Below are positions 1,751-42,777 of a DNA stretch of 64,000 nucleotides, in pieces (within the stretch, counting starts at the first letter, position 1; each line of letters starts with the position of its first letter). Below the pieces are notes generated by a model that saw only the letters and a list, made by a program, of their open reading frames with translations, searched no databases and was not told the origin of the DNA. The stretch is from Ostreococcus lucimarinus (Eukaryota): assembly GCA_000092065.1 (NCBI GenBank), contig CP000590.1. One strand, 5' to 3'. A program made the translations under genes and the position numbers.

Positions 1751-3604
1751 ATGCGCGACGACGATGCCGAGCCCGAGCGCGCGCTCGGTCGCGTGCGCAA
1801 GGTCTCCGGCCCCGTCGTCGTCGCCGATAACATGTACGGCGCGGCGATGTACGAACTCGTCCGCGTCGGCGGCGACGCGCTGGTCGGTGAGATCATCCGG
1901 CTCGAGCGCGACACGGCCACGATCCAGTGCTACGAAGAGACGAGCGGGCTCGCGGTCGGTGACCCGGTGGAGCGCACGAGACAGCCGCTGAGCGTGGATT
2001 TGGGACCGGGGGCGCTGGAAAACATCTTCGACGGGATTCAGCGACCGCTGAACGCGATCGCGGCGATGTGCGGCGATTGCTTCATACCGCGAGGAGTGAA
2101 CGTGCCGGCGCTGGACGCGTCGAAGACGTGGGAGTTCGTGAGCGGGAGGAGCGGGGTGAAGGCGGGCGATCACGTGAGCGGCGGCGATATATACGCGACG
2201 GTGCAAGAGAACGCGTTGATCGAACATCGGTTGATGGTGCCGCCGAACGCGAAGGGAAAGGTGACGTGGATCGCGCCGGATGGAGAATATAGCATCGATG
2301 AGAAGGTGATCGAGATCGAGTTCGGGGGAGTGGTGAAGGAGTTTTCGATGAAGCAACAGTGGCCGGTGCGAGCGCCGAGGCCGGTGGCGGAGAAGTTGAT
2401 GGCGGATCATCCGTTGTTGACGGGACAGCGCGTGCTCGATGTGATGTTTCCGAGCGTGCGAGGGGGGACTTGTGCGATTCCCGGCGCGTTCGGGTGCGGG
2501 AAGACTGTTATTTCTCAGGCGTTGTCGAAGTATTCCAACTCTGACGGGATTATTTACGTCGGATGCGGCGAACGCGGGAACGAAATGGCGGAAGTTTTGT
2601 ACGATTTCCCCGAGCTCACGATGACTATGCCGGACGGACGCGAGGAATCAATCATGAAGCGTACGACTCTGGTGGCGAACACGTCAAACATGCCCGTCGC
2701 CGCGCGCGAAGCGAGTATTTACACGGGCATCACGCTCGCCGAATACTTTCGCGATCAAGGGTACAACTTTTCCATGATGGCTGACTCTACTTCGCGCTGG
2801 GCCGAGGCGTTGCGTGAAATCTCCGGTCGTCTCGCGGAAATGCCCGCGGATAGCGGATATCCCGCTTACCTCGGCGCTCGACTGGCGTCCTTCTACGAGC
2901 GCGCCGGTCGCGTGCGATGCCTCGGCAGCCCGAATCGCGAGGGCTCCGTCACCGTCGTCGGCGCCGTGTCCCCCCCTGGTGGAGACTTCTCCGACCCCGT
3001 CACCTCGGCCACGCTCGGTATCGTGCAGGTATTCTGGGGTTTGGATAAAAAACTCGCGCAGCGCAAGCACTTTCCTTCGGTGAACTGGTTGATTTCGTAC
3101 TCCAAGTACACCAACGCGTTGGAGCCGTTTTACGAAAAGACGGATCCAGAGTTTGTGCAATTGCGCGTCGTCGCGCGCGAGGTGTTGCAAAAGGAGGACG
3201 AACTGAACGAAATCGTGCAGTTGGTCGGTAAGGATTCGTTGGCGGAGACGGATAAGGTTGTCTTGGAGACGGCAAAATTCTTAAAGGAGGACTTCTTGCA
3301 GCAAAACTCCTTCACGGCGTACGACAAGTATTGCCCCTTTTACAAATCCATCGGCATGTTGCGAAACATGATTCGTTTCCACGCGCTCGCCACGGCCGCC
3401 GTCGAGCGCGCGGCAACGACGAGCGATGGGCCGAAGATTACGTTTAACGTCATTCGAGCGCGCATGAGCGAGCTCATCTATCGCATCGCGAGCATGAAGT
3501 TTGAAGATCCTGTGGACGGCGAAGACGCGATTCGCGCTCGCTTCGCCGAGCTCGAAGACGACATCGTGTCCGCCTTCCGCGCGCTCGAGGACGAGTTCCG
3601 ATGA
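1751..3604 (+). CDS. VHA-A: V-type H+-ATPase catalytic subunit A
   Basis: A 617-aa uninterrupted ORF. It carries the Walker A motif GAFGCGKTV and typical V-ATPase A blocks ([21 protein letters not shown]) near the N-terminus. Confidence 0.95.
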
Positions 3605-5817: not shown

Positions 5818-6648
5818 TCACCAACCGAGCAAAAGCGGAAACATCCCTAGCAGACATCCCACGGTGACCCCCCCCGTGGCGCCCGCGACTTTGGCCCATC
5901 GCACCGCCGCCGTCATTCGCTGCGCCTGGGTCAAATTCTGCGGCGCCTGGAACCCCAACCGCTCGGCGAAGGTTTCGATCTTGCTCGACAACCCGATCCC
6001 CACGACGTCGCTCACCGTGTTCCCGAACCCCGCCGCCGCCATCGTGCTCAGCCCCAACCCCACCCCGAGCGCCGTCTCGATAGACTCCCCCGCCATGATC
6101 ATCACCGCGTTATCGCACAGCCCGAACCCCACGAACGGCACCGCCTGACTCAGCGCCACCGCTCGCAACTGCGCCGCCGTCGCGCTCGCCGTCGCGCTCG
6201 CCTCCTCCCGCCCCACCGACGCCGCGTCCCGCCGTTCGTCGCGACTCAGCGCCATCAAAAATTCCTTCTTATCCAAAACCCCGTCCCCGTTCGCGTCCGC
6301 GTCCTCGAACGCGCGATCGAGCGTCCCCGCGCTCGCGAGCGTCGCCATCACCGCGTCCCGCGTCGCCGCGTCCTCCGCCGCCACCGTCCCCACCGCCCGC
6401 GCGCGCGCCTCCGGCGCCATCGCTCGCAGCGCCCGCACCACCGCGCGCTCGTCCTCGCGCGCCGTCGCGCCCTGCGTCCGCCATCGCCGCTCGACGCGAT
6501 GCGGCTCGCGCGCGCGATGATTTCGTCCGACGTCTTCGCCGCGCCGTCGCGCGTCGCGCGCGCCGCCGCATCGCGCGCCGCGCTCGAGCGCGTCGCCGAC
6601 CATCGCCACCGACCGCGCGAGCGGTCTCGCGACGCGACGCGACGCCAT
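5818..6648 (-). CDS. TMEM65: TMEM65-like membrane protein with EF-hand
   Basis: An EF-hand loop DANGDGVLDKKEF is present. The C-terminal block GFGLCDNAVMIMAGESIE...GNTVSDVVGIGLS...GCLLGMFPLLLGW matches the TMEM65/DUF2453 family. The ORF extends to 6750, but the start was chosen at the internal Met at 6648. Confidence 0.6.
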   Translation of the reverse strand: MASRRVARPLARSVAMVGDALERGARCGGARDARRRGEDVGRNHRAREPHRVERRWRTQGATAREDERAVVRALRAMAPEARARAVGTVAAEDAATRDAVMATLASAGTLDRAFEDADANGDGVLDKKEFLMALSRDERRDAASVGREEASATASATAAQLRAVALSQAVPFVGFGLCDNAVMIMAGESIETALGVGLGLSTMAAAGFGNTVSDVVGIGLSSKIETFAERLGFQAPQNLTQAQRMTAAVRWAKVAGATGGVTVGCLLGMFPLLLGW

Positions 6649-40688: not shown

Positions 40689-41957
40689 TCACGGCGGGAT
40701 CGCGATGCGCGCTTGTAACGGAAGGTGGTCGCTCGGAAATCCAAACGTCGGCAATCCGACGTCGCTCGGGATTTCGCTCTCGTCCGGTAGCTTGGCCACG
40801 CTCACCACTTTGCTTCCTCGATGGGCCGAGTAGAGGATGTAATCGATCGTGTGTTTGACTTCTCCGGTCTTGAACAACCCGGTGCGCGTCTTCCACGTCG
40901 AAAATCTGTTTGAGTTTTTATCGCCGAGGGCCGCGCTCATGTCCTCGTACGCGTTGCGCATGCCGCGTCCGCGCAAGTGCACCACGCACGCCTCGTTGGG
41001 CGTCGCGTTCAAATCTCCGGCGATGATGATTTGGACTTTATCCACGTCCGCGCACAAACTCGTGGCGAACGCGTTCAAGTGTCGGCACAACTCTTTCGTT
41101 TGCTCCAGTCGAGTGATGATGCCGTCGACGGTTTTCGCCGACTCGAGATGGGTGGTGACGACGACGATTTCTTGGAGATCCTCTCCCGAGAACACGGGCT
41201 TGGCGTTGCCGCGAATGAGCGTACCGATCGCGTTGCGGATTCCAGACTCGCTTCGAGGATCCTTCTTCAACCGAAACCTCGCCATTAACGTCTTCCCGGC
41301 GTTGAGCGCCGGGTCGTCCTTGCGCGCGCGCGGCGTCCCCGGCGCGTGCGACGACAACAGCTCGAGTTTGTCAGTTTTGTAAAAGATGCACACGCCATCG
41401 CACGGCGCGCCGAATTTACGACAAGGCGACCACTGATCTTCCTTGTACAACCCCGCGTACCCGAGTTTCTTCAGCTCGGGCTCGAAGAAATCGTAGTAGT
41501 GATCGCACTCTTGCATGCAAATGACGTCCGGCGCCGTCGTCGAATCATTCGACGTGATCGCTCGAAGCAAATCCTTCGACCGTTTCGTCCAATTCAAATC
41601 ATACATTTCCTCGTTCGCCTCGGCGTCGTCCTCGCCGTAGTACGCGCTCGCGAACGCGTCGTTCAGCGCCAACGCGTCGGCGAGCGCGTTGTACTGGCAC
41701 ACCTGAATCGTCCTCGCGCCCGACGTCGACGTCGTCATCGACGCGTCGTCCCGGTTCGGGTCGTACACGTACCTCGACGCGTCGTCGTCCGTTTCGCTCG
41801 ACGCCTCGCGCGCGCGCCGTCGCGCGTCGTCGTCGTCGTCACCGGTCTTTTCGTCGTCACCGGTCGTCGCGGGCGCGTCGACGCGCGTCGCGCGCGCGTC
41901 GTCGGCGTCGTCGCGCGCGCCGTTCGCGGCGGCGCCGTTCGCGGTCTCGGCGAACAT
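40689..41957 (-). CDS. CCR4/nocturnin-like endonuclease-exonuclease-phosphatase family deadenylase
   Basis: EEP motifs (IQVCQYNALAD...CMQECDHYY...GDLNATPNEA...SDHLPL). Start chosen at the Met at 41957. The ORF caller's upstream extension runs through a tRNA gene. Confidence 0.8.
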   Translation of the reverse strand: MFAETANGAAANGARDDADDARATRVDAPATTGDDEKTGDDDDDARRRAREASSETDDDASRYVYDPNRDDASMTTSTSGARTIQVCQYNALADALALNDAFASAYYGEDDAEANEEMYDLNWTKRSKDLLRAITSNDSTTAPDVICMQECDHYYDFFEPELKKLGYAGLYKEDQWSPCRKFGAPCDGVCIFYKTDKLELLSSHAPGTPRARKDDPALNAGKTLMARFRLKKDPRSESGIRNAIGTLIRGNAKPVFSGEDLQEIVVVTTHLESAKTVDGIITRLEQTKELCRHLNAFATSLCADVDKVQIIIAGDLNATPNEACVVHLRGRGMRNAYEDMSAALGDKNSNRFSTWKTRTGLFKTGEVKHTIDYILYSAHRGSKVVSVAKLPDESEIPSDVGLPTFGFPSDHLPLQARIAIPP

Positions 41958-42101
41958 CGCGCGCGTCGACGCGAACTCGCGATCGGCGCGACGCGCGGCG
42001 CGGTGTGGCGCGCGCACGGATCGGCGATTCGGCGATTCGACGCGCGCGAACGATGGGCGACAGGCGCGGGCAAAAAGAGCGCGACACGACAAAAAGAAAC
42101 G

Positions 42102-42248
42102 AGGTCCTACCTGGATTCGAACCAGAGTCGCTGGATTACTGCGTGCGCAATCCGAGGGCGAGAGCGCGCCGTTCGACCGGCGCTCGCGTATGGACACTTT
42201 GCGTGTGAATTCAAAGTCCAGAGTGATAACCAACTACACTATAAGACC
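42102..42248 (-). tRNA. tRNA-Gln (anticodon UUG) with a 74-nt intron at the canonical 37/38 position
   Basis: The reverse complement reads GGTCTTATAGTGTAGTTGGTTATCACTCTGGACTTTGAA-[74 nt]-TCCAGCGACTCTGGTTCGAATCCAGGTAGGACCT. The acceptor stem GGTCTTA/TAGGACC pairs, the T-loop is GGTTCGAATCC, and exon sequence is near-identical to eukaryotic tRNA-Gln-TTG. Confidence 0.85.
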
Positions 42249-42375
42249 GTGACGGAAACTGATGGGCTTCACGTCGCCTTAACTACTCCACATGCCAAAC
42301 GATGTCGCCGTCGCCCCCGTAAAGTTGGCGGCGCCAAAGTTATGGGTTTTCCGCGCGCCGCGCGGGCGGCCGCGC

Positions 42376-42696
42376 TCACAGCGCGAGGTCCGCGAGCGCC
42401 TCCGCGACGGCGCCGTCGCTCGAGACCTCGCACGACGCGCGCTGGATCTCGGACAGGAGAATCATGTTGATCGTGCGCTGCGGCGCGGTGGCCTCGGAAC
42501 CGTCGTCCGCGATCGCGGCGTCGAGCGAGGCGTACTCGCGCGCGTCGGAGACGACGATGTTCCTCTGCTTGTCGACGCACCGAAGGGTGCCGACGAAGCA
42601 GCGCCCGTCGCGCGTGGTGGTGCGTATCGTCGCTCCGATGTAGTTTTCACGAAACGAGGACGAAGACGGGGACGAGGACGCCGGTGGAATCATCAC
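42376..42696 (-). CDS. NAA38: Sm-like protein, NAA38/LSMD1-like
   Basis: The Sm fold block IGATIRTTTRDGRCFVGTLRCVDKQRNIVVSDAREY resembles NAA38. Confidence 0.55.
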   Translation of the reverse strand: MMIPPASSSPSSSSFRENYIGATIRTTTRDGRCFVGTLRCVDKQRNIVVSDAREYASLDAAIADDGSEATAPQRTINMILLSEIQRASCEVSSDGAVAEALADLAL

Positions 42697-42777
42697 CGAG
42701 CGTCAAAGTGAGGCGAACGCGGCGGTCGATTTACACGCGAGCTAATAATTTTCCAAAGGGCGCCGACGCCGCGCGCG

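Follow-up and report, generated by a model that had tools for sequence, protein, structure and literature searches.

An intron-containing nuclear tRNA-Gln(UUG) gene in Ostreococcus lucimarinus and the varied architecture of its orthologues in Ostreococcus-like relatives

In a stretch of Ostreococcus lucimarinus DNA (64 kb, hereafter the window), we identified a genuine nuclear tRNA-Gln(UUG) gene with a 74-nt intron, located at 42248..42102 on the minus strand, the strand on which all tRNA coordinates in the window are given. The gene, its exon/intron boundaries, the covariation of its cloverleaf and the non-coding status of an overlapping open reading frame (ORF) are direct observations. We are highly confident that it is a functional, probably single-copy, nuclear Gln(UUG) gene of O. 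lucimarinus or of a very close relative. Orthologues in the same spacer of Ostreococcus-like relatives are built differently, and two of them are circularly permuted.

Rfam family RF00005 matches 42248..42102 (minus strand) with a score of 47.7 bits, compared to a gathering threshold of 29, and an E-value of 4e-7 for the 64-kb window. This agrees with the original prediction, made from the sequence alone, of a reverse-strand tRNA-Gln(UUG) at the same coordinates. All model positions (1-71 of 71) are aligned, and a 76-nt unaligned block falls within the anticodon loop. This match is the sole Rfam hit in the 64-kb window, as well as the sole one at E ≤ 1 in 41700-42700. When introns are allowed, ARAGORN also calls a tRNA here (c[42101,42248]) with a 74-nt intron. 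Default ARAGORN (bacterial, no-intron) finds nothing in the window; because this null result stems from the tool settings, it was not counted against the gene. The sequence of 42248..42102 (minus strand) reads GGTCTTATAGTGTAGTTGGTTATCACTCTGGACTTTGA, then 74 nt, then ATCCAGCGACTCTGGTTCGAATCCAGGTAGGACCT, and its parts are as follows, including the signals for RNA polymerase III (Pol III):

42102..42248, minus strand: nuclear tRNA-Gln(UUG) gene, complete, with a pre-tRNA body of 147 nt (Rfam, ARAGORN; identical in seven independent assemblies)
42211..42248, minus strand: 5' exon, 38 nt, tRNA positions 1-37, with the anticodon TTG at 42214-42212 (boundary from intron-free orthologues)
42137..42210, minus strand: intron, 74 nt, at the canonical 37/38 position (Rfam, ARAGORN, sequence)
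42102..42136, minus strand: 3' exon, 35 nt, positions 38-73, with discriminator U73 (sequence)
42230..42241, minus strand: putative A box, TAGTGTAGTTGG, positions 8-19 (consensus matched by inspection)
42113..42123, minus strand: B box / T arm, GGTTCGAATCC (exact match, unique in the window)
42091..42095, minus strand: T5 run, likely the Pol III terminator, 6 nt beyond the tRNA 3' end (sequence; function expected from Pol III biology)
about 42073-42069, minus strand: second T5 run (sequence)

Pairing is complete in the acceptor stem (7 bp), the anticodon stem (5 bp) and the T stem (5 bp), so the claim of pairing made for the acceptor and T stems withstood re-inspection. The D stem has three pairs and a U13.U22 mismatch, which is the sole non-pair in the cloverleaf and is also present in orthologues. 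The D arm TAGTGTAGTTGGTTATCAC, the anticodon loop CTTTGAA (interrupted in the gene as CTTTGA|A) and the T-loop GGTTCGAATCC (42123-42113) are all found as originally quoted, and the invariant tRNA nucleotides are all present. A U73 discriminator is typical of eukaryotic tRNA-Gln. Over six distinct orthologous sequences, 94.4% of cloverleaf positions are paired and eight pairs are altered on both sides. The covariation score was reached by none of 500 shuffles, and slid registers did not come close either. Because orthologue covariation beats all 500 shuffles, a chance tRNA match is excluded. The position predicted for the 74-nt insert, 37/38, is borne out by the Rfam anticodon-loop insertion and by alignment with intron-free orthologues. 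The window contains no extra halves of a permuted tRNA gene, and the gene is colinear.

We compared the locus in seven independent assemblies of O. lucimarinus. The protein of the adjacent LSM gene was found in 1289 blocks of the public assembly collection, and six contigs (L001-L006) were taken in addition to the window. The 147-nt tRNA gene, intron included, has no variants in the seven assemblies. The flanking spacer (271 nt) has six single-nucleotide polymorphisms (at 42292, 42264, 42086, 42072, 42061 and 42053) and a 2-nt GC indel at 42016. Approximately 3.8 variants would be expected in the tRNA gene compared to the zero observed (Poisson P ~0.02).

From established eukaryotic tRNA biology, we infer how the gene would be transcribed, spliced and used in translation. 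Pol III would use the internal A and B boxes, whose spacing exceeds that of an unsplit gene by ~74 nt, and would stop at the T5 run. Trimming of the ends would fall to RNase P and tRNase Z. With the mature domain as its ruler, the tRNA splicing endonuclease would cut after A37 and before A38, and tRNA ligase would join the exons to give a 73-nt tRNA with the loop CUUUGAA, to which CCA would then be added. The intron ends in CAGUA, and G(-3) and A(-4) within this end are complementary to C32 and U33. With C32:G(-3) and U33:A(-4) paired, the nucleotides U(-2), A(-1) and A38 would form a 3-nt bulge containing the 3' splice site. This splice-site geometry is backed at the level of sequence only.

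Several results weigh against a functional Gln(UUG) gene that is spliced in this way. At its free-energy minimum (-51.1 kcal/mol), the whole precursor does not adopt a cloverleaf; folding constrained to the cloverleaf gives -44.4 kcal/mol, and these models indicate that the GC-rich intron could promote misfolding in vitro. The anticodon-intron helix containing C32:G(-3) is not predicted by folding (probability ~0.01), and forcing it costs 2.8-3.6 kcal/mol. ARAGORN with introns allowed assigns the gene to Lys(ttt), with an intron beginning GAATTC. Lastly, the search for sibling copies has limits. Metagenome contigs from the Joint Genome Institute (JGI) were scanned for this 5' exon with other sequence behind it. 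No intron-free sibling turned up, which favours a single copy, and the one return was an unrelated AT-rich eukaryote; the scan, however, lacked a positive control and misses an intron with T as its third base.

The ARAGORN assignment corresponds to a tRNA-Lys(UUU) gene in which the 74-nt intron is placed 2 nt further 5', inside the anticodon. The Lys-register spliced sequence also scores as a tRNA. However, this register would require a cut between anticodon nucleotides and not at 37/38, the canonical position of the eukaryotic endonuclease (PMC4090602), and G(-3) is opposite C32 only in the canonical register. Canonical splicing at 37/38 gives the loop CUUUGAA, and ARAGORN labels that spliced product Gln(ttg). 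Furthermore, the window's joined exons are 54-63/73 identical to the syntenic Gln(UUG) genes, whether intron-free, intron-bearing or permuted. The intron-free orthologues have the loop CUUUGAA, which specifies Gln(UUG), and ARAGORN labels the intron-bearing orthologues of two relatives (L009 and L015) as Gln. By this comparison the gene is a tRNA-Gln(UUG), because its unsplit syntenic orthologues read CUUUGAA. The Lys(ttt) register was dropped on the orthologue evidence, and we consider it highly improbable. The two registers differ in the exon junction read they would give: GGACUUUGAAUCCAG for the canonical splice and CUUUUAAUCC for the Lys register. The intron boundary can also shift by 1 nt (38/39) with no change in product; the intron and the 3' exon both begin with A.

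The folding results would also fit a decaying or silent tRNA pseudogene with a functional, intron-free copy elsewhere, in which the long GC-rich intron imposes a free-energy minimum that is not a cloverleaf. Over evolutionary time, moreover, this locus has clearly been able to do without an intron. We nevertheless consider a pseudogene quite unlikely. All the stems and invariant nucleotides are preserved, as are the B box and the terminator, the gene lacks polymorphism in a setting of polymorphic flanks, and the metagenome scan yielded no sibling copy. A pseudogene would also have to be accommodated in a near-minimal set of 44 tRNA genes (PMC3673656). With only these 44 tRNA genes in O. lucimarinus, the tRNA that reads CAA with a UUG anticodon is probably not redundant.

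The AT-rich eukaryotic contig returned by the scan (L019, 850-1200, minus strand) is unrelated to the window. Its tRNA-Gln(UUG) 5' exon equals that of the window over 24 bases (GTTGGTTATCACTCTGGACTTTGA), and a second tRNA-like sequence is located directly upstream of its tRNA-Gln(UUG).

A further alternative concerns the ORF that overlaps the tRNA gene. This ORF (40689..42233, minus strand) begins at a TTG, encodes MVITLDFEF... and reads through the tRNA for 514 uninterrupted codons. If it were coding, the region would be the N-terminus of the downstream nuclease and its likeness to a tRNA would be incidental; some public prokaryote-style calls do reach upstream of the nuclease Met at 41957. 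We consider the probability of this next to nil. Four of the seven population copies carry the 2-nt GC insertion at 42016, between the tRNA and Met 41957, and because this indel breaks the frame of the extension, the read-through ORF is non-coding. In addition, the extension begins at a TTG, several frames stay open in DNA of 63% GC (the GC content of the window), the same spacer in relatives has its tRNA on the opposite strand or permuted, and the tRNA score and covariation are far above chance. The extension of the nuclease to 42233 is thus spurious and the nuclease starts at Met 41957, with 144 nt between it and the 3' end of the tRNA. The original prediction had recognised that the ORF caller read through the tRNA, moved the nuclease start to this Met and estimated the distance to a Pol II (RNA polymerase II) gene start at ~145 bp; the indel and the 422-aa public calls uphold this start.

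The tRNA gene is located in a 418-bp spacer between the following two genes:

40689..41957, minus strand: coding sequence of a nocturnin/CCR4-like EEP nuclease, 422 aa, starting at Met 41957 (ORF list, Pfam PF03372, 422-aa public calls)
42376..42693, minus strand: LSM-domain protein, 105 aa, the upstream neighbour and synteny anchor, identical to XP_001420210.1 of O. lucimarinus CCE9901 (protein identity)

The nuclease is labelled "nocturnin" by JGI, and the adjacent Tfb2 protein (a TFIIH subunit) clusters with XP_001420034.1. Together with the GC content of 63%, these protein matches place the window in the nuclear DNA of O. lucimarinus or a very close relative. Public calls for the nuclease gene use one of two starts, Met 41957 (422 aa) or a TTG that falls within the Pol III terminator (466-467 aa). 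The calls in L003, L004 and L005 are of the second kind and begin at ~42087-42092, 44-45 codons upstream of the real Met, in the terminator TTG. The spurious extension is also carried by P0017 (466 aa), the representative of a 90%-identity cluster.

An intron of 74 nt had been described as long for a nuclear tRNA. This length does not stand out: canonical eukaryotic tRNA introns are 6-133 nt (PMC4090602), a range that includes 74 nt, and in PMC13578239, which cites Maruyama 2010, the O. tauri tRNA introns are called unusually long at ~64 nt and are mentioned beside permuted genes. Green algae in the PlantRNA database have introns in many tRNA families (PMC3531208); a figure legend there lists Q without introns in one of two green algae. 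The O. lucimarinus survey counts 44 tRNA genes, four of them permuted (PMC3673656, PMC3978253), and the host genome is described as having a minimal set of 44-48 tRNA genes. The O. lucimarinus Gln(UUG) gene will probably have been covered by these tRNA surveys, and the window gene is of an already known kind, a further case of the long canonical tRNA introns of Ostreococcus.

Two features had been pointed out within the intron:

42192..42201, minus strand: intron segment CAAAGTGTCC, complementary to the anticodon-arm sequence GGACUUUG except for a 2-nt bulge (sequence)
42158..42187, minus strand: GC-rich intronic hairpin, GCGAGCGCCG...CGGCGC...UCGC (constrained and free folds)

The hairpin (42187-42158) appears in constrained as well as free folds, as proposed. 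For the anticodon complementarity, the match itself is present in the sequence, but the CAAAGTGTCC/GGACUUUG pairing is absent from both constrained and unconstrained folds and is not conserved in the 42-44-nt introns of relatives, which likewise have no counterpart of the hairpin. A blastn-short comparison of the 74-nt intron with nine loci of relatives (given as L007-L011) returned only chance 9-14-mers, and no Rfam family matches the intron. We regard the hairpin and the anticodon-complementary segment as passengers. The GC-rich intron as a whole (74 nt) is most likely neutral as well, a passenger of the long kind that is normal for the genus. AGUN before A38 is common to the window intron, to the introns of L009 and L015 (ending in GAGUC) and to the leader of the permuted gene in L007 (ending in GAAGUG). 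This suggests that only the 3' end of the intron (AGUA, with C32:G(-3) beside a 3-nt bulge) shows signs of constraint.

We also considered whether the intron has a function of its own, as a snoRNA-like or regulatory RNA or as a checkpoint delaying the maturation of tRNA-Gln; such a role would account for both its length and its hairpin. The intronic hairpin is stable (~10 bp), the intron is invariant in the seven assemblies, and snoRNAs can be hosted in or accompany archaeal tRNA introns and the dicistronic tRNA units of plants and O. tauri (PMC7671301; bioRxiv 10.64898/2026.07.10.737489). Such a function has only a slim probability in our assessment. Even at E ≤ 1 the intron region has no matching Rfam family, we see no C/D or H/ACA box motifs in the intron, and zero variants in 74 nt is not significant alone (~1.9 expected). 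Moreover, the introns of orthologues share neither its sequence nor its length, or are missing in near-identical relatives.

The proposed splice junction can be compared with those of better known systems. It resembles the pre-tRNA introns of yeast and vertebrates, with their Sen ruler and anticodon-intron (A-I) pair, in the 37/38 position, the potential C32:G(-3) pair with its 3-nt bulge and the intron segment complementary to the anticodon. It differs from them in that the intron is longer, interrupts a Gln isoacceptor and has an A-I helix that folding does not predict. Yeast tRNA introns are 14-60 nt and human ones are shorter; to our knowledge, tRNA-Gln has no intron in yeast or human. The archaeal introns with the helix-bulge-helix-bulge-helix (hBHBh') motif are also protein-spliced from the anticodon loop and have a 3' splice site that can sit in a 3-nt bulge. 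In the window gene, by contrast, no fold shows a strict bulge-helix-bulge motif, with its 4-bp central helix between two 3-nt bulges and its outer helix: the central helix would consist of C-G, U-A, U.C and U-G (three of four paired, with the U.C mismatch), and an outer helix cannot be drawn. The window junction is at best the relaxed hBH form of green-algal junctions, as these are described in PMC3978253. Compared to the long introns of O. tauri and other Mamiellophyceae (PMC13578239 and PMC3531208), the position is the same (37/38), with ~64 nt there and 74 nt here.

The same locus was reached in Ostreococcus-like relatives (L007-L017) through nuclease homologues at 64-76% identity. The gene order GT2 / LSM / tRNA / nuclease / Tfb2 / P-type ATPase is kept in at least six Ostreococcus-like lineages. 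The architecture of the tRNA-Gln(UUG) gene and its strand relative to the nuclease gene differ among loci as follows:

L011, L016, L012 and L013: intron-free, same strand as the nuclease
L010 (2834-2906) and L017 (1559-1631): intron-free, strand opposite to the nuclease
L014: intron-free and beyond the LSM gene, strand opposite to the nuclease
L009 (2857-2971) and L015 (2878-2994): introns of 42 and 44 nt (Rfam 40.9 and 40.7 bits), strand opposite to the nuclease
Window and L001-L006 (O. lucimarinus): 74-nt intron, same strand as the nuclease
L007 and L008: circularly permuted, strand opposite to the nuclease

With Rfam, the unsplit tRNA-Gln(UUG) genes of L011 and L010 score 57.7 and 54.9 bits, respectively. 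L009 and L015 can be compared closely with L010 and L017. Their exons are alike except for a compensatory change at 7:66, their upstream flanks can be aligned, and the 42-44-nt intron is cleanly present or absent exactly at 37/38. This would be a precise gain or loss of a tRNA intron, and a recent one because the flanking proteins (nuclease and Tfb2) are 94-95% identical.

In a neighbour-joining tree built from 738 aligned positions of nuclease and Tfb2, a group with 79% bootstrap support contains O. lucimarinus, L007, L009/L015 and L010, and the intron-free L011/L012 and L014 lie outside it. The tree fits a single intron gain followed by a change in length, one precise loss and one permutation. 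However, the deeper nodes of the tree are weak, and L007 has D- and T-loops closer in sequence to those of L011 than to those of its neighbours in the tree; both points argue against so simple a reading. In a Bathycoccus-like outgroup (L140), nuclease-Tfb2 synteny is kept and there is no tRNA within ~900 nt upstream.

Across loci L007-L017, exon sequence types do not track the protein tree. The pair 51:63 midway along the T stem, flagged by Rfam, is mismatched in a manner conserved within each lineage (U.U in L009 and L010, C.A in L011).

In L007, the tRNA-Gln(UUG) gene has its halves in reverse order, joined by a linker:

2836-2802, minus strand: 3' half
Linker between the halves: CGTATTATAC, 10 nt
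2791-2755, minus strand: 5' half, with the junction at 37/38

When the L007 halves are rejoined, they form a perfect cloverleaf that ARAGORN identifies as Gln(ttg). The anticodon-stem pairs A27-U43 and A28-U42 are altered on both sides compared to other orthologues, and the two strands of the stem lie in different halves. L008, from another sample, is the same as L007 save for one linker base. Among the permuted tRNA genes of Mamiellophyceae and Cyanidioschyzon merolae (Soma 2007; Maruyama 2010; PMC3978253), L007 and L008 correspond to type II (37/38), in contrast to the colinear gene of the window.

Under the duplication-and-decay model, permuted tRNA genes arise when a tandemly duplicated gene loses its outer halves (PMC3978253). 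The model predicts a decayed 3' half after the 5' half, and the sequence following the L007/L008 5' half appears to match this prediction. The 31 nt after the L007 5' half align with AAGTG, as an intron end, plus the 3' half, with ~8 nt of the T arm missing, so that the permuted gene and its trailing remnant span 2836..2723 (minus strand). The colinear reading is scored by Rfam as a tRNA lacking a T arm, at 23.7 bits, which is below threshold. The alignment score of the remnant (27) was equalled by 34 of 5000 shuffles, in a test that was post hoc, and the pattern of ATCCTT followed by CGAGAGC occurs in 0.04% of shuffles. A corresponding remnant of the 5' half upstream of the L007 3' half was not significant (3253 of 5000 shuffles score as well). 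If the reading of the trailing remnant is true, L007 and L008 would be an intermediate of duplication and decay caught in the act. The list of 19 green-algal permuted genes in the 2014 review (PMC3978253) does not include Gln(UUG). A permuted tRNA-Gln(UUG) with an adjoining remnant half is new as far as the accessible literature shows.

Taken together, these loci suggest that the LSM-nuclease spacer is a hot spot in which one tRNA-Gln(UUG) gene has been repeatedly rebuilt between close lineages, with flips in orientation, with the L009/L015 versus L010/L017 intron difference as one such change and with the L007/L008 remnant as a duplication-and-decay intermediate. We place about even confidence in this reading. 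Rapid turnover in the architecture of one orthologous tRNA gene within a genus is, so far as the accessible literature shows, new.

Prasinoviruses also encode this isoacceptor. PMC3673656 reports tRNA-Gln(UUG) in OtV5, OlV1 and MpV1. More than 120 IMG/VR contigs (L020-L139; best matches 38-48% GC) contain an intron-free, eukaryote-type tRNA-Gln(UUG) that is at most 63/73 identical to the spliced tRNA of the window. The viral genes thus share the isoacceptor and the eukaryote-type body with the window gene but have no intron, and they are no closer to it than to those of other lineages. Such viruses, with the matching contigs as putative prasinoviruses, may bring along an already intron-free version of a tRNA that the host has to splice.

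With introns allowed, ARAGORN makes a second call in the window, a tRNA-Ala(ggc) with a 119-nt intron (c[6289,6500]) within long ORFs. This candidate (6289-6500, minus strand) is almost certainly a false positive: its GC content is 75%, its D stem is weak at 3 bp, and Rfam does not match it.

For annotation, these results mean that default tRNA finders and prokaryote-style ORF callers miss this tRNA gene. Gene models for this green alga, which is abundant in the sea, should start the nuclease at Met 41957 and include the intron-bearing tRNA-Gln(UUG). More broadly, arguments about the gain and loss of tRNA introns and about the origin of permuted tRNA genes have relied mostly on indirect evidence. 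A series of orthologues from a single genus, the remnant 3' half included, would, with cultured Ostreococcus clades, make both models directly testable.

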